DNA of 64,000 nucleotides from a bacterium (lineage in GTDB: Bacteria; UBP6; UBA1177; JAKLFG01): the NCBI GenBank assembly GCA_022709425.1, contig JAKLIW010000013.1:183-64182 (forward strand), read 5' to 3'. Every line of letters starts with the position of its first letter. Position 1 is the stretch's first letter. The notes beneath the pieces were generated by a model. That model was given only the letters and a program-made list of their open reading frames with translations. It made no database searches and was not told the origin of the DNA. A program made the position numbers and the translations under genes. Below are positions 20,701-32,959 of the stretch, piece after piece.

Positions 20701-20709
20701 GTATTCCTC

Positions 20710-21819
20710 CTAACCGAAATCATCAAAATAGATCCGCTCGCGTGCTACGCCGATAGCGGTGAGCGCCGCGATATAGGACTTGATCACCGCCGAACCGGCG
20801 CACAGATAGGCCTCGATAGCGGCGCCGTTCGGGATGTACTGCGGCAGGATATCGGTGAGCCGCCCGGTCTGGCCATCCCAGCCGTCCTCCGCGTTCGGGC
20901 GGCTGATGGCGGGAACGAACCGGAAATTGGGCAGGCGTTTTTCGAGCTCCCGCATCTCATCGAGCAGGAACAGGTCGCACCGCTCTTTGCAGCCGAACAG
21001 GTAGGTCACCTTGCGCGCGCTCCCCTTTTCGGCCATGTCGAGCAGTATCGAACGCATCGGCGCCATTCCCGACCCGGTCGCCATCATGATGATGTCGCGG
21101 TCGCCGTCGTGCAGGCCGAAATCGCCGTAGGGGCCGTTGAGGGTGACGATGTCGCCCACCGCGAGATGGCGGTGGACCCACGTCGTGGCGATACCCTCCG
21201 GGACATACTTTATCTCCAGTTCCAGCCGGTCCTTCATCGAAGGCGCCGAGGCGACCGAATAGGCGCGGTAGAGCGGTTCGTCGGTCAGTTCATAGGGCGA
21301 CACCTCGAGCTGGACGTACTGCCCCGCTTTGAAGTCGATGGTCGCCGGTCCGCGCAGGGCGAAGGTCACCTCCTTGAGATCGCGCGTCAGGTCGACGATG
21401 CGGGTCACTTCAGCGGTGTATTCGCGCACCGACAGAAGTTCCTGCGGCACCGCTATCTTGAGATCGTTCTTCACCTTGAACTGGCAGGAGAGCCGCACCT
21501 TCGCCGCCCGCTCCCCGGCGCTGAGCCACGGCAGTTCGGTCGCCAATATCTCACCGCCCCCCGCCGCCACTTTCACCTTGCACAGGCCGCACGAACCGCG
21601 CCCGCCGCAGGCCGACGGGATGAAAAGCCCCTGTTCCTTGAGCGCGGTAAGCAGCGTGAGCCCGCCGGTCACCGTGAGTTCCTTGTCGTCGTTGACCGTG
21701 ACCTTCTTTTCGCCGTAATTCCCGATGGTGGCGTCGGCAATGACCATGAGAACGGCGAGCGCCACGGCGATCGCGGCGACCACCCCGACGCTGATGAGCA
21801 GTTCCATCACCATCGCCAT
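20710..21819 (-). CDS. nqrF: NqrF-like membrane-anchored [2Fe-2S]/FAD NAD(P)H reductase
   Basis: N-terminal TM helix; PSACGGRGSCGLC...RLSCQ; RAYSVAS; ATGSGMAP; C-terminal FDDFG; follows nqrE. Confidence 0.85.
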   Translation of the reverse strand: MAMVMELLISVGVVAAIAVALAVLMVIADATIGNYGEKKVTVNDDKELTVTGGLTLLTALKEQGLFIPSACGGRGSCGLCKVKVAAGGGEILATELPWLSAGERAAKVRLSCQFKVKNDLKIAVPQELLSVREYTAEVTRIVDLTRDLKEVTFALRGPATIDFKAGQYVQLEVSPYELTDEPLYRAYSVASAPSMKDRLELEIKYVPEGIATTWVHRHLAVGDIVTLNGPYGDFGLHDGDRDIIMMATGSGMAPMRSILLDMAEKGSARKVTYLFGCKERCDLFLLDEMRELEKRLPNFRFVPAISRPNAEDGWDGQTGRLTDILPQYIPNGAAIEAYLCAGSAVIKSYIAALTAIGVARERIYFDDFG

Positions 21820-21822
21820 CCC

Positions 21823-22419
21823 CTAGTTGAGGCCGAGCATGCCGGCGAAGCCCATGAAGGCCATCGCCATGATGCCCGCGATGATGAGCGCTATCCCCGC
21901 CCCGTCGAGTCCCCGGGGGATACGGGCGTTCTTGAGCCGTTCGCGGATCCCCGCCATCGCGACGATGGCCACCAGCCAGCCGACGCCGCTCCCGGCGCCG
22001 TAGACCACCGATTGGGCGAGACTGTAGTGACGGATGATCATGAACAGCGCCGCGCCGAGTATCGCGCAGTTGACCGTGATGAGCGGCAGGAAGATGCCGA
22101 GCGCCTGATAGAGCGGCTCGCTCACCCGTTCGATCACCATTTCGACCAGCTGGACGAAGGCGGCAACCACGATGATGAAGACGATGTATTTGAGATGATC
22201 GAGGTCGAAGGGGAGCAGCAGGTAGTAGTAGACGAGCCAGTTGATGGCGCTGGTCGCGGTCATCACGAAGACGACCGCCGCCCCGAGCCCGATGGCGGTC
22301 CTGACCTGCCGCGACACGGCGAGGAACGAACACATCCCGAGATAGAGCGTCAGCAGTATGTTGCCGGTGAAGACCGCCGCGAAGAATATGGTGAAAAGTC
22401 CGGGACCCTGACCGCTCAT
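21823..22419 (-). CDS. nqrE: NqrE/RnfA-family membrane subunit (NqrE-like)
   Basis: LGMCSFLAVS, LGIFLPLITVNCAILG, GSGVGWLVAIVAMAGIRE. Confidence 0.88.
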   Translation of the reverse strand: MSGQGPGLFTIFFAAVFTGNILLTLYLGMCSFLAVSRQVRTAIGLGAAVVFVMTATSAINWLVYYYLLLPFDLDHLKYIVFIIVVAAFVQLVEMVIERVSEPLYQALGIFLPLITVNCAILGAALFMIIRHYSLAQSVVYGAGSGVGWLVAIVAMAGIRERLKNARIPRGLDGAGIALIIAGIMAMAFMGFAGMLGLN

Positions 22420-23030
22420 TTGGCCCCTCCCTCATCGCGCAGGAACCGTCCCTTGACCACCCAAACGAAAAGGGCCAGCATGAAGAAGGCGCCGGGGGCC
22501 ATCACCATGATGGACCACTTCACCCACCAGTCGCCGAGCACCGCGATGCCCCAGACGGTGCCGCTTCCCATCAGTTCGCGCAGAAAGGCGATCACCATGA
22601 GCACCCACGAGTAGCCGATCCCGGCGGTGATGCCGTCGACGAGCGACAGAAGCGGCCGGTTGGTCAATGCGAATGCCTCGGCGCGCCCCATGATGATGCA
22701 GTTGGTGATGATGAGCCCGACATAGGGTCCCAACTGGCGCGAGATATCGGGGGCGGTCGCCTTGAGAACGATATCGACGATGATGACATAGGCGGCGATG
22801 ATGAGCGTAGTGACCATCATCCGGACCCGCTGGGGTATCCATGACCGCAGCGCGCTTATCGTCAGATTGGAAAGCCCCGTGGTGAAGATGAGCCCGAGGC
22901 ACATCACGAGGGTGTTGCGCAGGTCGTTGGTGACCGCGAGCGTCGAACAGATGCCGAGCACATGGACGAATACCTGATTCTCGCGGCCGAGGTTGGCGAT
23001 GGTCACGGTGCGCATCTTTTTGAGGTTCAT
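22416..23030 (-). CDS. nqrD: NqrD/RnfE-family membrane subunit (NqrD-like)
   Basis: VLGICSTLAVT, YVGLIITNCIIMGRAEAFA, APGAFF; 4-nt overlaps with its neighbours. Confidence 0.88.
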   Translation of the reverse strand: MNLKKMRTVTIANLGRENQVFVHVLGICSTLAVTNDLRNTLVMCLGLIFTTGLSNLTISALRSWIPQRVRMMVTTLIIAAYVIIVDIVLKATAPDISRQLGPYVGLIITNCIIMGRAEAFALTNRPLLSLVDGITAGIGYSWVLMVIAFLRELMGSGTVWGIAVLGDWWVKWSIMVMAPGAFFMLALFVWVVKGRFLRDEGGAK

Positions 23031-23635
23031 CGCCCGCCTCCGACGATGCCCGGCGCGTCGGCGATGACGCCGTTAACGATATCGCCCGCCGCCGTGGTGG
23101 TCACCGTCGCGCCGGTGACGGCGTCGAACCGGCCGTCGGCCGCGCCGGTACCTTCGGGTTGCGGCCGGAACGGCCCCTTTTTGCCGCGGAACTGTGCGGT
23201 GAACCACGGTTCGCTGATGCGGGCGCCGAGCCCCGGCGTCTCGCCGTGGGCGTAGAAATCGACCCCGGTCAGGCGGTCGAGCGCCGCGTCGAGCCCCACA
23301 TGGGCGTCTATTGGTCCCCAGAGTCCCGTACCGCGCCGCGTGAAGACGTAGACCGCGTCGCCGTCGTGCCGAAGGACGCGGTAGTGACGGCCGTCGGCCG
23401 CGCGGACCCGGTCGGCGTAGAGTTTTTCGACCGCCGCGCCGTCGGCGGGCGCCGCGATACCGGCCGCCGCGAGCACCGACCGTTTGAGGAAGAGCGATTC
23501 GTTGCGTTTTATGGCGTCGCGGGCGAACAGATGTGCCGCCGATACCGCCGCGACGAACACCACCGTCACCGCGAACATGAAAAAAACGGTGAAAAGACGT
23601 TCGCGCCCCTTCGAACGGGGTTTCCGGCCGCTCAT
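23027..23635 (-). CDS. nqrC: NqrC/RnfG-family FMN-binding subunit
   Basis: N-terminal TM helix; GTGLWGPI, HGETPGLGARI, DAVTGATVT (flavinylation motif). Start at ATG overlapping the nqrB stop. Confidence 0.88.
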   Translation of the reverse strand: MSGRKPRSKGRERLFTVFFMFAVTVVFVAAVSAAHLFARDAIKRNESLFLKRSVLAAAGIAAPADGAAVEKLYADRVRAADGRHYRVLRHDGDAVYVFTRRGTGLWGPIDAHVGLDAALDRLTGVDFYAHGETPGLGARISEPWFTAQFRGKKGPFRPQPEGTGAADGRFDAVTGATVTTTAAGDIVNGVIADAPGIVGGGR

Positions 23636-24582
23636 GTCCCTTTCCCCGTCTGCCGTTTCTTCAGCGTCTCGAAGGCGATATCGGTGATCGGGCCGAACAT
23701 GTTGGCCAGCAGTATCGCGAACATCATCCCTTCGGGCCACACCGAGAAGGTGCGGATGAGGACCGTCAACATCCCGATGAAGAGGCCGTACACCTTCTGT
23801 GCCGTCGGGTTCTTGGGCGCCGAGACCGGATCGGTGGTCATGAAGAAGAGCCCCAGCACGAAACCGCCCGCCAGCAGCGCCGTCAGCGGATCGTGGGCGC
23901 GCGGCACCCCGGCCCACCACAGCAGCGCCTGCAGGCCGATCATCCCGAAAAGCGTCCAGTTGACGATAGCGCGGTTCGCCACCTTTTTCCCGTAAAGCCA
24001 GCCGCCGCCGATGATAAGGGCGATGGCGCTCGTTTCGCCGAGCGACCCCGCCTCATACCCGATGAGCGACCGCAGCCAGAAATCGGGATCTATGGCCGGC
24101 ATCGCCGAAAGCATCGTCGCGGCGGTCACCGCATCGGTGCTCCAGAGGGCGAGCCCGCCCCACGGCAGCGCCGCCGGTTCGGCCCAGCGGCCCGTCATCC
24201 AGCCCGCGAAGGTGATGTAGATGAAGGCGCGGCCGACCATCGCCGGGTTGAAGACATTGCGCCCGAAGCCGCCAAAGACCATCTTGCCGAACACCACCGC
24301 GAAGGCGCACCCCACCGCCGCCATCCAGAACGGGAGCGTCGGCGGTAACGACAGGGCGAGCAGCGTCCCGGTGACGAAGACCGAACTGTGGACCGGTTCG
24401 TTATAGTGCCGCGCGAAAAGATATTCGGAAAGAAAAGCGGTCAGGTTGACCACCGCCAGCATCATGACGGCGCGCCACCCGAAGAAATAGACCGCACAGA
24501 GCATCGCCGGGAGGAGCGCCCAGAGCACCCGCCGCATCGGCGGCGTCCACTGGATGAGCGGCCTGTCGTTCCCCGGCGTCAT
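23632..24582 (-). CDS. nqrB: NqrB/RnfD-family membrane flavoprotein, short (316 aa) form
   Basis: FGGFGRNVFNPAMVGRAF, DAVTAAT (FMN-Thr), GSLGETS, FMTTDPVS, PEGMMFAILLANMF. Lacks the long NqrB N-terminus. Confidence 0.85.
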   Translation of the reverse strand: MTPGNDRPLIQWTPPMRRVLWALLPAMLCAVYFFGWRAVMMLAVVNLTAFLSEYLFARHYNEPVHSSVFVTGTLLALSLPPTLPFWMAAVGCAFAVVFGKMVFGGFGRNVFNPAMVGRAFIYITFAGWMTGRWAEPAALPWGGLALWSTDAVTAATMLSAMPAIDPDFWLRSLIGYEAGSLGETSAIALIIGGGWLYGKKVANRAIVNWTLFGMIGLQALLWWAGVPRAHDPLTALLAGGFVLGLFFMTTDPVSAPKNPTAQKVYGLFIGMLTVLIRTFSVWPEGMMFAILLANMFGPITDIAFETLKKRQTGKGT

Positions 24583-24642
24583 GAGATACTCCGTCAAAAG
24601 GCAAAGATATCCTAACGGGAATCGGCGGAAATGCAAAAAGAA

Positions 24643-26676
24643 CTACTTCTTCAGTTTCCAGTCGAGCGCGCCGACGGGGCACTCGCCGATGCACTTGCCG
24701 CAGTCGCGGCAGAGCTGTGACGGGAGCGGTTGGGAGAAGGCGGTATCGACATGGGTGCCGAAGCCGCGGAACTTGAAGCCGAGGATATTCTGATTGACCA
24801 CCTCGGAGCAGACCTTGACGCAGACGCCGCACTTGATGCACTTGCCGCGGTCGAGGATGATCTCGGGGTGGCGCACATCGTAGCCGAAGTTCGGCTTCTC
24901 GCCGATCATCGCATCGGGCTTGGCGGTGTAGGTCTCGCTGTGTTTCTTGAGCGAGCAGTCGCCCTTGGCGGTGCAGGAACATTCGATGCACCGTTCGCCC
25001 TCTTTGGTTATCTCGCCCTGCGTGTAGGTGAGCGATACTTCCTTGAACGTCGCGGTCCGGTCGTGTTCCGGAATGAGCCGCTGCGGGGTCCGCTTGCGCT
25101 CGATCGCCTCCTTGAGGTAGACCAGATCGGTGGGTTTCAGGCTCTGCCATTTGCCGCGCGAGACATTGAGCAGGTAGGGCTCTTTGAATTCCGTGCTCTC
25201 TATCTGCGCGAGGATGGCCAGCGCCGTCCGGCGCGCCCCGGCGACCGCCTCGACGACGGTGGCGGGACCGCTCACGCAGTCGCCCGCCGCGTAGATACTG
25301 CCCTCCATGCGGCAGTTCTCCTTGCTCACCTCGACATCGCCCCACTTGGTCGCCTTGACCCCCTGCGGCGCGATGGTCTTCTGGCCGATGGCGCCGATGA
25401 CGGTGTCGGCGACGGTGTCGAAATCGCTGTTGGGGACCGGGACCGGCTTGCGGCGGCCCGAGGCGTCGGGTTCGCCGAGCGTCATCCGCTGGCTGGTGAG
25501 GACGAGCCGCCCGTTCTCCTTGCGCAGTTTCACCGGCGCGACGAGGAATTCGAACTTGACCCCTTCCTCCTTCGCCTCGTGTATCTCTATCTTTTCGGCC
25601 GGCATCTCGGCCTCGGTCCGGCGGTAGAAGCAGGTCACCTCCTTGGAACCGAGCCGCACCGAGGTACGCAGGCAGTCCATCGCGGTGTTGCCGCCGCCGA
25701 TGACTATCGTTTTGCCCGGGTTCGCCCCTTTCCAGCCGGCGAGCGCTATCTTTTCAAGGTACTGGATGCCGCCGACGGCGAGTTCTTCCCCTTCGACACC
25801 CGCCGCGCTCGACTTCCACGAACCGACCGTTATCGCGACGGCGTCATAGTTCTTCTGCAGGTCGGCGAGGGCGATATCCTTGCCCAGTTCCTTGTTGCAG
25901 TGGATGGCGATGCCGCCCATCTTGGTAAAGTGCGCTATCTCGCGGTCGAGTATCGCCTTGGGAAGACGGTATTCGGGGATGCCGTAGCGCAGCATGCCGC
26001 CCGGTTCGGGTTGCTTGTCGTAGAGGTCCGACGCGACGCCGTTCAGCCGCAGGAAATAGGCGACCGACAGCCCGGCGGGACCGGCGCCGATGATGGCGAC
26101 CTTTTTGCCGGTGAGCGGTTTCCGCTCTTCCATATAAGAATCATAATGCATGTCGGCGGCGAGCCGTTTGAAGTCGTTGATGGCGACCGGTTCCTTGTCG
26201 ACGACATTGCGGCGGCAGTCCTTTTCGCAGAACCGCGGACAGACGCGGCCGATCGACATCGGGAGCGGTATCCGTTCCTTGATGAGTTTGAGCGCTTCGA
26301 GCAGATTCCCCTTCTTCCCTTCGCGGACATACTCTTCGACCTGCGCATGGGCCGGACAGGCGATGGTGCAGGGCGCCTCACAGTCGCCGCTGTGTTCCGA
26401 AAGCATCAGATTGAGCGCCGTTTTGCGCATATCCCACACTTCCGGGGTGTCGGACTCAATGGTCATCCCATCGGCGATCTCCATCGCGCAGGACGGCACG
26501 AACCGCCCCGTTTTCGTGTCCTTCACAAGGCAGACGAAGCAGGAGGTGGTCTTGGTGATCTTCTGGTTGAAACAGAGCGTCGGGATCGAGATACCGTTGC
26601 GTTCGGCGACCTGCAGGATCGTTTCGCCCTTTTCGGCCGCGAAGGGCTTGTTGTCTATCGTGATGGTGAAGCTCAT
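24643..26676 (-). CDS. NuoG/HydA-type Fe-S scaffold with inserted GltD-like FAD/NADP(H) domain (BfuA/NfnA-like); no H-cluster or Mo/W domain
   Basis: IPTLC..SCFVC..C; HSGDCEAPC..CP; GRVCPRFCEKDC; IGAGPAGL; GGGNTAMD..YRR; CIECSC; CIKCGVCVKVC; CRDCGKCIGECPVGAL; then stop. Confidence 0.85.
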   Translation of the reverse strand: MSFTITIDNKPFAAEKGETILQVAERNGISIPTLCFNQKITKTTSCFVCLVKDTKTGRFVPSCAMEIADGMTIESDTPEVWDMRKTALNLMLSEHSGDCEAPCTIACPAHAQVEEYVREGKKGNLLEALKLIKERIPLPMSIGRVCPRFCEKDCRRNVVDKEPVAINDFKRLAADMHYDSYMEERKPLTGKKVAIIGAGPAGLSVAYFLRLNGVASDLYDKQPEPGGMLRYGIPEYRLPKAILDREIAHFTKMGGIAIHCNKELGKDIALADLQKNYDAVAITVGSWKSSAAGVEGEELAVGGIQYLEKIALAGWKGANPGKTIVIGGGNTAMDCLRTSVRLGSKEVTCFYRRTEAEMPAEKIEIHEAKEEGVKFEFLVAPVKLRKENGRLVLTSQRMTLGEPDASGRRKPVPVPNSDFDTVADTVIGAIGQKTIAPQGVKATKWGDVEVSKENCRMEGSIYAAGDCVSGPATVVEAVAGARRTALAILAQIESTEFKEPYLLNVSRGKWQSLKPTDLVYLKEAIERKRTPQRLIPEHDRTATFKEVSLTYTQGEITKEGERCIECSCTAKGDCSLKKHSETYTAKPDAMIGEKPNFGYDVRHPEIILDRGKCIKCGVCVKVCSEVVNQNILGFKFRGFGTHVDTAFSQPLPSQLCRDCGKCIGECPVGALDWKLKK

Positions 26677-28409
26677 GACTTACCTCCGCTCTTGCCGTAG
26701 TGGCCGGTCCCTTTCTCGACCCGGCTGATCGTTTTCTTCGGACAGACCTCGATGCAGGAATTGCAGCGCGTGCAGATCGCATTGTCGACCACAAATTCGG
26801 GGCTGATCGCCTTGACGGCGCAGGTCTTGACGCAGATGCCGCACTTGATGCACTTGTCGATGTGGATGGCGACATCGGAAAGCTGATTGCACTGGAGCGC
26901 CGGACATTTGTGGTGCACCGTGTGGGCATCGTACTCGTGCTTGAAATAGCGCAGGGTCGAAATGACCGGGTTGGGCGCCGTTTGGCCGAGGCCGCAGAGC
27001 GACCCCTTGATGACCTTCGGGCCAAGATCGGCAAGGAATGCCACATCATCGGCGTTCCCTTTTCCATGGGTTATCTTCTCAAGCCGTTCGAGCATCCGCT
27101 TGGTGCCGATGCGGCAGAAAGTACATTTGCCGCAGCTTTCGCGCGCGGTGAATTCGAGGAAATAACGCGCCGTTTCGACCATGCAACGGTTCTGGCCGAT
27201 AACGATCAGACCGCCCGACCCCATGATGGCGCCGAGGCTTTTGAGCGAATCGTAATCGACCACCGCGTCGAACTTATCGGCCGGGATGCAGCCGCCCGAC
27301 GGGCCGCCGATCTGGACCGCTTTGACCGAACCGCGCTCGGCGCCGCCCACTTCGTAGACGATATCGCCGATGGTGACCCCCATCGGAACCTCGGCGAGCC
27401 CCGGATACTTCACGTCGCCCGCCAGCGCGAAAAGTTTGGTCCCCTTCGACCCCTGCGTGCCGACCGACGCGAACGCCGCCGCTCCCTCTTTGAGGATGAG
27501 CGGCACATTGCCGAAGGTCTCGACGTTATTTATCGCGGTCGGATAGCCTTTGTAGCCGCTGTCGGTCGGGTACGGCGGACGGAAGCGCGGCGTACCGCGT
27601 TTTCCTTCCAGCGAATGAATCATCGCCGTCTCTTCGCCGCAGACGAAGGCGCCGGCACCCTCTTTAAGTCTGAACTCGACCGTGCGCGTTCCCAGTTTGT
27701 TGAGACCGCGCTCGTATATCTGATCTATCGCGATCTTGAGGTTCCGTATCGCGAGCGGATATTCGGCGCGGCAGTAGATCGTCAACTGGGTCGCTCCGGT
27801 CGCAAGCGCACCGATGAGCATCCCTTCGAGCACCTGATGCGGCACCGATTCCATCAGCGACCGGTCCATGAACGCGCCCGGATCGCCTTCGTCGGCGTTG
27901 CAGATAAGCACCTTCTCCTTCGCCTCTTTCGCCGCGAGGAATCCCCATTTGGTGCCGGTCGGGAAACCGCCGCCGCCGCGACCGCGCAGACCCGATGCCT
28001 TGACCTCGGCGACGATGTCGGCCGGCTTCATCTCGAGCGCCTTTTTCAGCGCCGTGTAACCGCCGTGGGCGATATATTCATCGATGGAGGTCATATCGAT
28101 GCGTCCGGCGAGGGCGAGCACCTTGATCATCTCGCGGCCGGAACGCTGTTTCCGCTCCACCAGACGCCCCTCCTCCTTGAGCGCCAGCATCCGGTCGAGA
28201 TGCTCCTTTTTCGGCTGGACCCTTTCGTAGAAGAAAGGACCGCCGTCGGTCTCGATCTCAACGAGCGGTTCGGCATAGCAGTGACCCACACAACCCACCT
28301 CGACGATAGGGATATCCTTCACCTCTTTGCGGATGAAGGTGAGTAGCTCGGTCGCCCCCGCCGCGATACCGCAGGAGCCGGCGCCGACCTTGATACGCGT
28401 TATCTTCAT
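26673..28409 (-). CDS. HydB/NuoF-like FMN/NADH subunit (BfuB) with N-terminal thioredoxin-like and C-terminal 2x[4Fe-4S] domains
   Basis: GSCG..GCVGHC; SGLRGRGGGGFPTGTKW; CNADEGDPGAFMDR; GAGAFVCGEET; SCGKCTFCRIG..SLCGLG; CIKCGICVKTC..CTRCNSCIEVCP. Confidence 0.92.
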   Translation of the reverse strand: MKITRIKVGAGSCGIAAGATELLTFIRKEVKDIPIVEVGCVGHCYAEPLVEIETDGGPFFYERVQPKKEHLDRMLALKEEGRLVERKQRSGREMIKVLALAGRIDMTSIDEYIAHGGYTALKKALEMKPADIVAEVKASGLRGRGGGGFPTGTKWGFLAAKEAKEKVLICNADEGDPGAFMDRSLMESVPHQVLEGMLIGALATGATQLTIYCRAEYPLAIRNLKIAIDQIYERGLNKLGTRTVEFRLKEGAGAFVCGEETAMIHSLEGKRGTPRFRPPYPTDSGYKGYPTAINNVETFGNVPLILKEGAAAFASVGTQGSKGTKLFALAGDVKYPGLAEVPMGVTIGDIVYEVGGAERGSVKAVQIGGPSGGCIPADKFDAVVDYDSLKSLGAIMGSGGLIVIGQNRCMVETARYFLEFTARESCGKCTFCRIGTKRMLERLEKITHGKGNADDVAFLADLGPKVIKGSLCGLGQTAPNPVISTLRYFKHEYDAHTVHHKCPALQCNQLSDVAIHIDKCIKCGICVKTCAVKAISPEFVVDNAICTRCNSCIEVCPKKTISRVEKGTGHYGKSGGKS

Positions 28410-28867
28410 GCCGCTCCTCCCTTCCGGTAATCTTTGAGTATCTTGAGCAGTCCTTTCCGGTCGAGATTGCCGAAGACCTTGCCGTTGACCGAGATGACCG
28501 GTGCGAGGCTACAACAGCCGAGACAGGCGACCGTTTCAAGGGAGAAAAGCCCCTCTTTATCGGTCTGGCCGTCCTTGATGCCGAGATCCTCCGACAACCA
28601 GCCGGTAACCAATGATGCCCCCTTGATATGGCAGGCGGTCCCGTCACAGACCGAGATCTTGTACTTGCCGGGTTTGACCCGTTTGAACTGGGCGTAAAAA
28701 CTGACCACCCCCTCGACCTCGACGGTCGCGATGGTGAAATGGTGGGCGATCGCCTCGATCGCCGCGTTCGAGATGTAACCTTCATCCGTCTGCACGGCCT
28801 GCAGCGCCTTGATGAGATTGCTCCGATCGGTGTCGATCTTCCTGAGCAGTTCAGACAAGTGACTCAT
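28406..28867 (-). CDS. HydC/NuoE-like [2Fe-2S] subunit (BfuC)
   Basis: EGVVSFYAQF, VCDGTACHIKGA, ACLGCCSLAPV. Start after GGAGG. Confidence 0.92.
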   Translation of the reverse strand: MSHLSELLRKIDTDRSNLIKALQAVQTDEGYISNAAIEAIAHHFTIATVEVEGVVSFYAQFKRVKPGKYKISVCDGTACHIKGASLVTGWLSEDLGIKDGQTDKEGLFSLETVACLGCCSLAPVISVNGKVFGNLDRKGLLKILKDYRKGGAA

Positions 28868-29028
28868 CGTTCCTCCGGGGTGCGGGTAATATGCCACACT
28901 TCGCTCATAATTCGGATAATTCAAAACGAAAGTCAAGCAGAAAGAGCCACACGCGACCGAATCTAACGGAACGCTAAAGGAAAAAGGGCGACACGGGAAG
29001 GACAAGCCTTTTTTTTCTTAGGCAATTT

Positions 29029-29056
29029 TTGACTTTCCCTCTCTTCCTATTATAAT
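29029..29056 (+). promoter_or_regulatory. Sigma70 promoter of dnaG-rpoD
   Basis: TTGACT-16 nt-TATAAT, 30 nt before the dnaG start. Confidence 0.75.
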
Positions 29057-29086
29057 GCCACCGAATTTTTTTATACGGGGCCCCTC

Positions 29087-30889
29087 TTGACCCTTGTCGA
29101 TGTGAACCGGATAATCGAAGAACGCGTCAACATCGTCGATGTGGTCCGCCGTTACGTCAAACTCCAGTCGGCGGGACGTCGCCAGACCGGGCTGTGTCCC
29201 TTTCACAAAGAAAAGACCCCGTCGTTCAGCGTCAACGAAGAACGGCAGTTTTATCATTGTTTCGGTTGCGGCGCCCACGGCAATGCCCTGACCTTTGTAA
29301 TGAACATCGAGAACCTCTCGTTCCGCGAGGCGGTCAAGAAACTCGGCACCGACTTCGGCATCCGCGAACTTTTGCAGGAACAGTCGACCCCCGAGGCCGA
29401 CCGTAGCGAGGAGGAACGCCGCCAGATACTCGCGATCAACCGTCTCGCCGCGCTGTTCTTCCACCGCAAACTCGGTGAAAGCCGCGAGGCGTCCGATTAT
29501 TTGGCCAAACGCGGCATCACACCCGACACGATAAAACGGTTCGGGCTCGGCTGGATAGGCAACGGCGACGAACTGATCCTTTTCCTGCGCAACAACGGCG
29601 TCGCTTCGAAACTGATGGAGAAAAGCGGGCTGACACGCGTCGACCAGAACGGCAACCTGCGCTCCTTCTTCCACGACCGTATCATGGTGCCGGTGGTCAA
29701 CATGCGGCGCCAAGTCATCGGTTTCGGCGGTCGCATCATCGGCCCCGGCGAACCGAAATACCTCAACACCGCCGAAACGCCGGTCTTCCTGAAACGAGCC
29801 AGTCTTTTCGGCATCAACCTCATTCGTGACGGTCTCAAAGATCATAAGTATATCATCCTCACCGAAGGCTATTTCGATGTGATGGCGCTTCACGCCCACG
29901 GCTTCGGCACCGCGGTCGCGGCGCTCGGCACCGCAATAACCGAGGATCACCTGAAACTCATCGAACGGTTCGGCGTGCCGCTGGTGATGATACTTGACGG
30001 TGACGCGGCGGGCCGCAAGGCGATGCGGCGGGTGCTCGATCTCGCGCTACCCGAAAAACTCGACCTGCGCGCCGCCTTCATCGAAAGTCCCGACGGCAAG
30101 GAAGACCCCGATTCGCTGGTGCGCCGACCCGACGGCAAGGAACGCATGGAGGCGGTCATCGCAGGGGCCAAGGATATCACCCAGCACTATATCGACGATC
30201 TTGCCGAGCAGGCGCTCTGGGATCCCAACATCCCGGCGCGGGACGTCGCCAAGGACGAGATGGCCCGCTTGATACTGCGTTTCCCGCTCAACAAGCGGAT
30301 GGAGTACCTCAACAACCTCGGCGATATTCACCGCCGTCACCATAATTTCGACGAGACGGCGGCGAAGAAACTGCGCAAAGAGGTCGATCTGCAACTCCGC
30401 GATATCGCCAAACGGGAGCGCGGTAACACGGCAAGCCGAAATGACCGCGCCCCGGAAAGCGGAAGCGTCGCCAAACGATCGATCCCGGCCGAACTGACGC
30501 GGGAACTGTTCGTGCTCGCCGCAACCCACCGATCGCTCATCCCGGCGCTTGACGATCCATTCCTGCAGCGCTATGACCTCAACGACCTAAGAATTCGACT
30601 GCTCACCGCCCACGACAGCGGCGAAGGCAACGAAACCTATGAGAAGATGATAGCGGAACTCGACCGCGACGGCAAACTGGTTCTCGCCTCCGGCAAACTC
30701 ACTGAAGCCGCCGCCGCCACGCGCTTTCAACAGATCGTATTCAAACTGCGCATCGCTGATATCGACAAAGCGGTTCTCGATCTCAAGACCGAGTCGTCGC
30801 CCGATGCAATAGCCGAGATACAACGCCTGATGAATGAGAAAAAACACCTGTCAGCCTCCCTCACCATGGGGACCGGCGCGGCCACCTAA
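29087..30889 (+). CDS. dnaG: DNA primase
   Basis: CPFHKEKTPSF..CFGCG zinc finger; FHDRIMVP, GFGGR, PKYLNTAET, TEGYFDV, LGTA, DGDAAG, DPD. Confidence 0.97.
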   Translation: MTLVDVNRIIEERVNIVDVVRRYVKLQSAGRRQTGLCPFHKEKTPSFSVNEERQFYHCFGCGAHGNALTFVMNIENLSFREAVKKLGTDFGIRELLQEQSTPEADRSEEERRQILAINRLAALFFHRKLGESREASDYLAKRGITPDTIKRFGLGWIGNGDELILFLRNNGVASKLMEKSGLTRVDQNGNLRSFFHDRIMVPVVNMRRQVIGFGGRIIGPGEPKYLNTAETPVFLKRASLFGINLIRDGLKDHKYIILTEGYFDVMALHAHGFGTAVAALGTAITEDHLKLIERFGVPLVMILDGDAAGRKAMRRVLDLALPEKLDLRAAFIESPDGKEDPDSLVRRPDGKERMEAVIAGAKDITQHYIDDLAEQALWDPNIPARDVAKDEMARLILRFPLNKRMEYLNNLGDIHRRHHNFDETAAKKLRKEVDLQLRDIAKRERGNTASRNDRAPESGSVAKRSIPAELTRELFVLAATHRSLIPALDDPFLQRYDLNDLRIRLLTAHDSGEGNETYEKMIAELDRDGKLVLASGKLTEAAAATRFQQIVFKLRIADIDKAVLDLKTESSPDAIAEIQRLMNEKKHLSASLTMGTGAAT

Positions 30890-30904: not shown

Positions 30905-32959
<2,055 letters not shown>

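Follow-up and report, generated by a model that had tools for sequence, protein, structure and literature searches.

A naturally shortened A subunit of a probable Stn/Nfn-type bifurcating transhydrogenase, lacking the formate dehydrogenase-like domain

What could be the function of a HydA-like protein that has no hydrogenase centre, but carries a complete GltD-like flavin module inserted in the middle of its iron-sulfur framework? Such a protein, 677 residues long, is encoded in a 64,000-nucleotide stretch (hereafter the window) of contig JAKLIW010000013.1, from a bacterium of the GTDB lineage UBP6. Its gene is preceded by genes for a NuoE-like and a NuoF-like protein. Sequence comparisons make it probable that this is the A subunit (NfnA/StnC/BfuA), in a natural short form, of a Stn/Nfn-Bfu bifurcating transhydrogenase, made together with NfnC (the NuoE-like protein) and NfnB (the NuoF-like protein), and we use these names below. 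NfnABC/Stn is a three-protein enzyme with which anaerobes keep their NADH, NADPH and ferredoxin pools in balance.

The domain architecture of NfnA was examined with Pfam, which detected Fer2_4 (residues 3-77), Fer4_20 (99-178), Pyr_redox_2 (191-480) and a dicluster Fer4/Fer4_Nqo3 domain (605-671). Neither a hydrogenase large-subunit (H-cluster) domain nor a molybdopterin domain was found by Pfam in the protein, and hydrogenase models matched only its N-terminal and dicluster parts, far under their cut-offs. The flavin adenine dinucleotide (FAD) fold carries GAGPAG at 197-202, and the NADPH fold carries GGGNTAMD at 327-334 and YRR at 351-353. These are followed by CIECSC at 563-568 and by CxxCxxCxxxC motifs at 613-623 and 656-666, with the stop codon 11 residues past the second of them. 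An earlier interpretation of this DNA, made from the letters alone (the sequence-only reading), had described a HydA-like subunit with a cluster motif interrupted by a GltD-like domain, without an H-cluster or a molybdenum/tungsten bis-pyranopterin guanine dinucleotide domain and without any further catalytic domain. All the motifs it quoted were found, the insertion was confirmed, and the absence of another catalytic domain proved to be real and conserved in orthologues. The borders of the insertion can be seen in two comparisons. Residues 11-99 and 568-671 of NfnA match a HydA-like gene of the same genome (contig C34) at stretches only two codons apart, and among solved HydA chains residues 4-114 align with 5-111 of 8a6t_A and residues 567-672 with 98-202 of 7p5h_A. 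Both show the same break, indicating that the GltD module is inserted in a HydA frame. The sequence-only reading had treated this insertion as unusual, whereas the split motifs HxxxCxxxCxxxCP and CxxCxCxxxxC with a GltD module between them are a published hallmark of StnC (PMC7483475), and in the Thermococcus sibiricus enzyme the H-cluster arrangement gives way to an NfnL-homologous FAD domain that "is inserted" there (PMC12018979).

Ligand conservation was assessed in an alignment of 20 NfnA orthologues. Invariant or nearly so were the four [2Fe-2S] cysteines, H95/C99/C103/C107, C146/C150/C154, K170, R230, the GGGNTAMD motif, Y351-R352-R353, C563/C566/C568/C574 and the full set of eight cysteines in the terminal dicluster domain. 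K170 aligns with K170 of both StnC from Sporomusa ovata and NfnA from Caldicellulosiruptor saccharolyticus (Csac), and in both of these bacterial structures it is the lysine ligand of the first cluster after FAD, A7 (PMC10482914; PMC11829005).

The solved chains closest to the window proteins all belong to the Stn/Nfn-Bfu family. NfnA is colinear over residues 5-671 with 9bov_A (E 5e-175), 8oh5_C (4e-157) and 9n5u_A (8e-152), and a Foldseek search with its AlphaFold model returned as top matches Csac NfnA, StnC and T. sibiricus NfnA (43, 40 and 38% identity, respectively). The same colinearity and the same inserted NfnL-like domain hold for the Thermococcus NfnABC, the comparison which the sequence-only reading had proposed, and its assignment of the gene product to the A subunits of Bfu enzymes of the NfnABC type is borne out by the Csac, S. 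ovata and T. sibiricus proteins and by the matches of the partners to NfnB and NfnC. For NfnB, the best solved relatives are 9bov_B (1e-182), 9n5u_B and 8oh5_B, with E values of about 1e-180; for NfnC they are 9n5u_C, an NfnC (2.5e-36), and 8oh5_A, a StnA. NfnB keeps the flavin mononucleotide (FMN)/NADH site, the B1 cysteines, the His/Cys site after B1, the C-terminal 2x[4Fe-4S] domain and a thioredoxin-like domain at the N-terminus, and C13/C40/H43/C44, C426/C429/C432/C472, H496/C502/C507, C520-C530 and C546-C556 are invariant in 13 NfnB orthologues. Non-bifurcating homologues lack the sites for clusters B2-B5, which are located in N- and C-terminal extensions (PMC11829005). The features that define a bifurcating BfuB, namely a thioredoxin-like domain at the N-terminus, the Zn/B2 site and C-terminal B3 and B4, are all present in NfnB. 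The locus has the operon expected for Stn/Nfn-Bfu (NuoE-like, NuoF-like and A subunit), and NfnA has the split motif around the GltD module, the Lys-ligated A7/C7 cluster and the NADPH-type GxGxxA ... YRR signature. What it lacks is the third domain of the described A subunits, a C-terminal NuoG/FdhF-like domain with cluster A5. This last feature is descriptive rather than mechanistic, since the papers call the domain a non-functional remnant. By every mechanistic feature compared, NfnA would thus belong to Stn/Nfn-Bfu.

If the described A subunits carry a third domain, where has it gone in this protein? Residue 671 is the last position of 9bov_A (1178 residues) and 8oh5_C (1172 residues) to which NfnA aligns, and NfnA itself ends at residue 677, where the FdhF-like domain of the long forms begins. 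Described StnC/NfnA proteins have 894-1241 residues (table in PMC7483475), and the solved homologues 963-1178. The missing Fdh-like domain (StnC residues 683-1172) binds no pterin, is catalytically inactive, carries a dead-end cluster branch and contributes tetramer contacts (PMC10482914; PMC11829005). We surveyed 80 related loci from genome assemblies of several phyla, including Lentisphaerota and the phylum of the source genome. The stop codons of all complete short nfnA genes among them lie 0-20 codons from a common position, and the NuoE-NuoF-short-A trio is kept in every locus spanning those genes. The short form is also present in the cultured Victivallis vadensis DSM 14823 (WP_116883242.1, named "FAD-dependent oxidoreductase"), and a protein identical to the window NfnA occurs on several independent public contigs. 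All-against-all clustering of the flanking open reading frames revealed no conserved fourth gene beside the trio; a MiaB-like radical SAM protein, an ArnA-like protein and a deacetylase are neighbours only within limited clades. No FdhF-like coding remnant was detected 3' of nfnA, and tblastn queries taken from the C-terminal domains of five long forms met no FdhF-like gene adjoining any short form in the 80 loci. In the source genome, the same search matched only contig C14, beside another NuoEF pair. A split layout, with a separate FdhF/SfrA-like gene, was ruled out by the tblastn of the 80 loci.

The distribution of lengths suggests how the short form arose. Among 1.84 billion representative proteins, the 50%-identity cluster of NfnA itself is short (P0122, 683 residues), while nearly all next-best clusters, at 40-46% identity, are long. 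A tree built from the shared region puts the short clade, with its long branch, within a group of mostly long forms supported at 0.99; its sister group is weakly supported (0.21 and 0.56). Since the short clade is nested among mostly long forms, the simplest reading of these sequences is that the short form derives from long ones by secondary loss of the remnant domain. At least one other lineage (P0212), also short and with NuoE/NuoF partners kept, has lost the domain independently, and P0252 is a short stand-alone relative found beside ispH, without NuoEF. Short relatives of 655-716 residues, these two among them, are scattered in the tree (L088 43-4323; L089 4822-6798). In the literature, covered incompletely but including Victivallis and Sumerlaeota Nfn and one Schut 2022 supplement, we found no description of an NfnA of about 680 residues.

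The path that electrons would take through the shortened subunit can be drawn from the Csac wire, FAD-A7-A6-A3-A2-A1-[B1-FMN-C1], from which A4 and A5 branch off at A2 as a dead end (PMC11829005). In the inserted GltD-like module, NADPH would reduce the FAD, and single electrons would pass to A7, with its Lys170 ligand, and to A6, both in the same module. The next carrier would be the His-ligated cluster A3, reconstituted from both halves of the split motif, followed by A2, one of the C-terminal ferredoxin-like clusters, and by A1, the N-terminal [2Fe-2S] cluster. From A1 electrons would reach the B1-FMN-C1 site of NfnBC, where bifurcation to NAD+ and ferredoxin would take place; in the reverse direction, NADH and reduced ferredoxin would yield NADPH. 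We assign residues to A1-A4 provisionally, from the motif arrangement, the cluster order in complex I and the Csac description. In this assignment the terminal domain would hold A2, on the wire, and A4, which would be the only stub. A4 is absent from the working T. sibiricus enzyme (PMC9304861), and is thus not needed for the reaction. The missing domain contributes tetramer contacts in the bacterial enzymes; we therefore expect a heterotrimer, ABC, that is soluble and has a mass of about 155 kDa, a stoichiometry and an oligomeric state that we infer from the homologues.

Several observations speak against an ordinary NfnABC enzyme, or at least complicate this assignment. The activity is predicted from homologues that are 38-43% identical. 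Cys114 of StnC, whose mutation halves the activity (PMC10482914), corresponds to Val113 in the window NfnA in the alignment of solved chains. The N-terminal site of NfnB consists of three cysteines and one histidine instead of four cysteines. The A4 ligands are kept although the partner cluster A5 is gone, which hints at some residual role. Finally, the gap between nfnA and the nqrB gene that follows it is only 60 nucleotides and contains no terminator-like hairpin, so that co-transcription with a membrane module is possible.

Could the same three proteins form an enzyme that does not bifurcate? NADPH:NAD+ oxidoreduction is a side activity of Stn (PMC10482914), homologues were historically named Nso in T. 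litoralis and SfrB in Geobacter (PMC7483475), and related short proteins such as P0252 occur without NuoEF partners. The window proteins might accordingly act as a NADPH:NAD+ transhydrogenase, or as a NADPH-dependent sulfur or metal reductase like Nso or SfrAB. However, NfnB keeps all the sites that mark a bifurcating BfuB (PMC11829005), the partners are always NuoE/NuoF-like and not SfrA-like, and NfnA scores 626.8 with the PRK12814 model, below its cut-off of 916. We consider a non-bifurcating oxidoreductase unlikely.

A different possibility is raised by the genes that follow nfnA. They form an nqrB-C-D-E-F-like cluster, with an NqrB of the size of RnfD (316 residues) and an NqrF of 369 residues, which does not comprise the six subunits NqrA-F of Na+-NQR; a search for NqrA_N in the genome, which is 91% complete, gave no match. 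The Nfn proteins could be imagined as the cytoplasmic input arm of this NqrA-less NqrBCDEF, with an exposed A4 docking to it and coupling NAD(P)H and ferredoxin to Na+ translocation. Eight genes lie on one strand across the short gap described above, the nqrB ATG is preceded by a Shine-Dalgarno sequence, the genome lacks NqrA (the cytoplasmic cap in canonical Nqr), NfnA has conserved A4 ligands but no A5, and at least one further public assembly record has the same arrangement. Surface exposure of A4 is not readable from the AlphaFold model of NfnA (mean predicted local distance difference test score, pLDDT, 71.5), because the cluster-binding C-terminus (residues 587-677) falls below 50; the model was used for the fold search.

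The distribution of the two modules argues against such a link. An nqr cluster right after nfnA is peculiar to the source genome and at least one further record, L096, in which NfnA is identical; in the 80 other loci, no nqr genes adjoin the trio. Each of the seven other genomes in the family encodes the short NfnA and lacks an NqrF-like gene. Of 39 species genomes of the phylum, 16 encode a short NfnA and 8 an NqrF-like protein: the two occur together in 5, on different contigs in all but the source genome, while nqrF alone is found in 3 and nfnA alone in 11. A free-standing copy of the five-gene nqr cluster is found in Pleomorphochaeta (L086) and another in a metagenome contig (L085), and NqrA-less nqrBCDEF clusters are described in Pseudothermotoga lettingae, P. 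thermarum and Clostridium ultunense (PMC5924567). In L085, the cluster is followed by an unannotated gene of about 150 codons that is not homologous to the GAF gene of the window.

The nearest relatives indicate how the modules may have met. A small gene with a GAF_2 domain directly follows nfnA in L002, L003 and L097-L099. From the end of nfnA to the start of the GAF gene there is a variable slot within an apparent single transcription unit. It is empty in these loci (L002 10032-10117), and holds genes for beta-propeller and 23S-rRNA-IVP-family proteins in L001 (7751-11021), two open reading frames in L047 (8603-9853) and nqrBCDEF in the window, where the flanks of the insert are 24583-24642 and 20701-20709. 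DNA homology to the relatives stops exactly at the nfnA stop and restarts at the ribosome-binding site of the GAF gene; neither repeats nor mobility genes were seen at the borders of the slot. Given the absence of synteny in the 80 loci, the distribution in the family and phylum, the nqr clusters that stand alone and the variable slot, the nfn and nqr modules are independent units joined by insertion. An Nqr link as a conserved feature was ruled out by the synteny, by presence and absence in the family and phylum, and by the contexts of NqrF homologues. The sequence-only reading had supposed that the distal C-terminal clusters could make contact with a membrane partner. The comparisons do not support this: one of these clusters would be on the main wire, with only A4 a stub, and the nqrBCDEF-like genes are not conserved neighbours. 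A role of Nfn as the input arm of NqrBCDEF is very improbable, and equally so is its most novel form, in which A4 would be a working second electron port wiring two known machines into an ion-translocating NAD(P)H/ferredoxin oxidoreductase.

That NfnA is instead the GltD of a glutamate synthase, or a GltD-type donor to a separate catalytic protein, is the reading that database names would suggest. Its public name is merely "FAD-dependent oxidoreductase", and NCBIfam GltD-family models match it at E values of 1e-48 to 1e-88. The scores are nevertheless far below the cut-offs (TIGR01317, 163 vs 448; TIGR01318, 290 vs 483), no GltB-like gene is nearby or conserved in the window and the fetched loci, and a HydA/NuoG frame surrounds the GltD module and wires it to NuoF; we give this reading hardly any credence. 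Identities as a hydrogenase, a glutamate-synthase GltD or a PRK12814 equivalog were ruled out by the Pfam and NCBIfam scores. An artefactual length (truncated gene, frameshift or assembly error), conceivable in a metagenome-assembled genome of 75 contigs, has a negligible chance of being true and is refuted by the stop position common to all complete orthologues from many species including the cultured V. vadensis, by the exact protein on independent contigs and by the lack of an FdhF-like remnant downstream.

Having weighed these alternatives, we return to the short-form NfnABC and its genes, which are listed with the other features of the locus below. The locus is predicted to be an nfnCBA (stnABC) operon, divergent from dnaG-rpoD.

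Table 1. Positions in the window of the nfn genes, the segments of NfnA and the neighbouring genes.
Feature	Position	Strand	Evidence
Short nfnA/stnC (BfuA) gene, 677 residues + stop	24643..26676	(-)	Open reading frame, Pfam, NCBIfam, solved-chain alignment
NfnA: N-terminal HydA/NuoG-type [2Fe-2S] domain, residues 1-94 (C35, C46, C49, C63)	26395..26676	(-)	Pfam Fer2_4 3.4e-17
NfnA: split motif, first half, H95-x3-C99-x3-C103-x3-C107-P108	26353..26394	(-)	Sequence
NfnA: inserted GltD/NfnL-like module, residues ~100-562, two [4Fe-4S] sites + FAD fold + NADPH fold	24991..26379	(-)	Pfam Fer4_20, Pyr_redox_2
NfnA: split motif, second half, C563-x2-C566-x-C568-x5-C574	24955..24990	(-)	Sequence
NfnA: C-terminal 2x[4Fe-4S] ferredoxin-like domain (C613/616/619/623, C656/659/662/666)	24664..24864	(-)	Pfam Fer4_7, Fer4_Nqo3
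nfnB/stnB-like gene, NuoF-like, 578 residues	26673..28409	(-)	
nfnC/stnA-like gene, NuoE-like, 153 residues, thioredoxin-like [2Fe-2S], first gene of the operon	28406..28867	(-)	
Divergent promoter region between nfnC and dnaG-rpoD	28868..29086		Promoter-like sites, both strands
dnaG	29087-30889	(+)	
rpoD	30905-32959	(+)	
NqrA-less nqrB-C-D-E-F-like cluster	20710..24582	(-)	Pfam, NCBIfam
nqrB	24582-23632	(-)	
nqrC	23635-23027	(-)	
nqrD	23030-22416	(-)	
nqrE	22419-21823	(-)	
nqrF	21819-20710	(-)	
Small GAF_2-domain gene, 153 residues	20239..20700	(-)	Pfam; directly 3' of nfnA in closest relatives

The operon begins with the ATG of nfnC at 28867, preceded by a Shine-Dalgarno sequence (GGAGG-n4-ATG), as the sequence-only reading had correctly placed it, and consecutive genes among nfnC, nfnB and nfnA share 4-nucleotide overlaps. 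NfnC matches Pfam 2Fe-2S_thioredx at 9e-45. In NfnB, Pfam found Complex1_51K, SLBB, NADH_4Fe-4S and two Fer4 domains (the pair at residues 513-565), corresponding to an N-terminal thioredoxin-like domain, the FMN/NADH site, a [4Fe-4S] site and a C-terminal 2x[4Fe-4S] ferredoxin domain. The large antisense open reading frames at 24730-26700 (+) and 26700-28346 (+) are taken as shadow frames, usual at about 62% G+C. Compared to the orthologous operon of L001 (3526-7747 vs 24643-28867 of the window), NfnA is 99% identical, NfnB only 90% and NfnC 93%, and the GAF and LexA genes flanking the operon are 96-98% identical. The uneven conservation within the operon may reflect recombination inside it or very different constraints. 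The GAF_2 gene, kept right behind nfnA in the family, encodes a single-domain protein that in size and domain would resemble free methionine-(R)-sulfoxide reductase.

Related gene sets are found elsewhere in the source genome. A second NuoE/NuoF set on contig C34 (234946-237926) is followed by the HydA-like gene used above and is probably a HydABC hydrogenase; a third, on contig C14 (22842-26726), is followed by a NuoG/FdhF-like gene. Contig C1 carries a canonical rnfC-D-G-(E)-A cluster at about 201800-205800 (L083) and a separate GltD/NfnB-like gene at 136218-137570.

The short NfnA reveals no new mechanism. The inserted GltD module was known, and what is new is the length of about 680 residues without the Fdh-like domain. 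A widespread short form that has lost this domain, yet keeps all ligands of the proposed FAD-to-FMN wire, provides independent comparative support for the argument that the domain is a remnant. The complex would be smaller and probably non-tetrameric, and may lend itself better to expression, engineering and imaging. Database names such as "FAD-dependent oxidoreductase" and "glutamate synthase small subunit" are uninformative, and recognising these proteins, which occur in many Lentisphaerota, as NfnA changes the redox-balance predictions for Victivallis, other Lentisphaerota and the source phylum.

Finally, how does the window system compare with those already known? The stand-alone Fer2-GltD-Fer4 proteins (PRK12814, Geobacter SfrB type) resemble NfnA in length and domain order, and the profile matches residues 3-628 at 4e-188; they differ in that the score misses the cut-off and that they, like P0252, have no NuoE/NuoF partners. 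SfrB pairs with a separate FdhF-like SfrA. Geobacter SfrB/SfrA are briefly mentioned in the description of Stn (PMC7483475). The bifurcating [FeFe] hydrogenase HydABC has the same BC core, and the [2Fe-2S] domain, His cluster and 2x[4Fe-4S] domain of HydA are those that frame the GltD module here; unlike HydABC, NfnA has no H-cluster domain, and its third substrate would be NADP(H) rather than H2. The neighbouring nqr genes have the same five-gene order and content as the NqrA-less clusters of Pseudothermotoga and C. ultunense, which stand alone (PMC5924567).

The closest resemblance is to the three transhydrogenases with solved structures. StnABC of S. ovata (8OH5/8OH9; Kremp 2020, PMC7483475; Kumar 2023, PMC10482914) has the same three-gene NuoE/NuoF/A operon, and its StnC shares with NfnA the [2Fe-2S] domain, the split-motif GltD insertion, Lys170, YRR and the 2x[4Fe-4S] domain, being colinear over residues 3-671 at 40% identity. 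It differs in having 1172 residues, with Cys114 in place of Val113 and with the FdhF-like domain (683-1172) that makes tetramer contacts together with the N-terminal domains and holds the dead-end branch with clusters C1/C2 (PMC10482914). Csac NfnABC (9BOV/9BP5; PMC11829005) provides the best solved relative of both NfnA and NfnB, and its A7 ligands C108/C147/C151/K170 correspond to C107/C146/C150/K170 of the window protein. Csac NfnA, in contrast, has 1178 residues, an Fdh/NuoG-like domain with A4-A5 and a tetramer of trimers, whereas the window NfnA keeps the A4 ligands and has no A5. T. sibiricus Nfn-BfuABC (9N5U/9N5V; PMC12018979; PMC9304861) has the same subunits and the same NfnL-like insertion, and its NfnA is already shortened, to 963 residues, and non-tetrameric. 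The trimming took the opposite course in the two proteins: T. sibiricus NfnA retains the NuoG/Fdh-like domain and A5 and has no A4 cysteines, while the window NfnA has kept A4 and lost A5 with the domain. Since the T. sibiricus enzyme is active in spite of its shortened A subunit, trimming of the C-terminus is compatible with activity.

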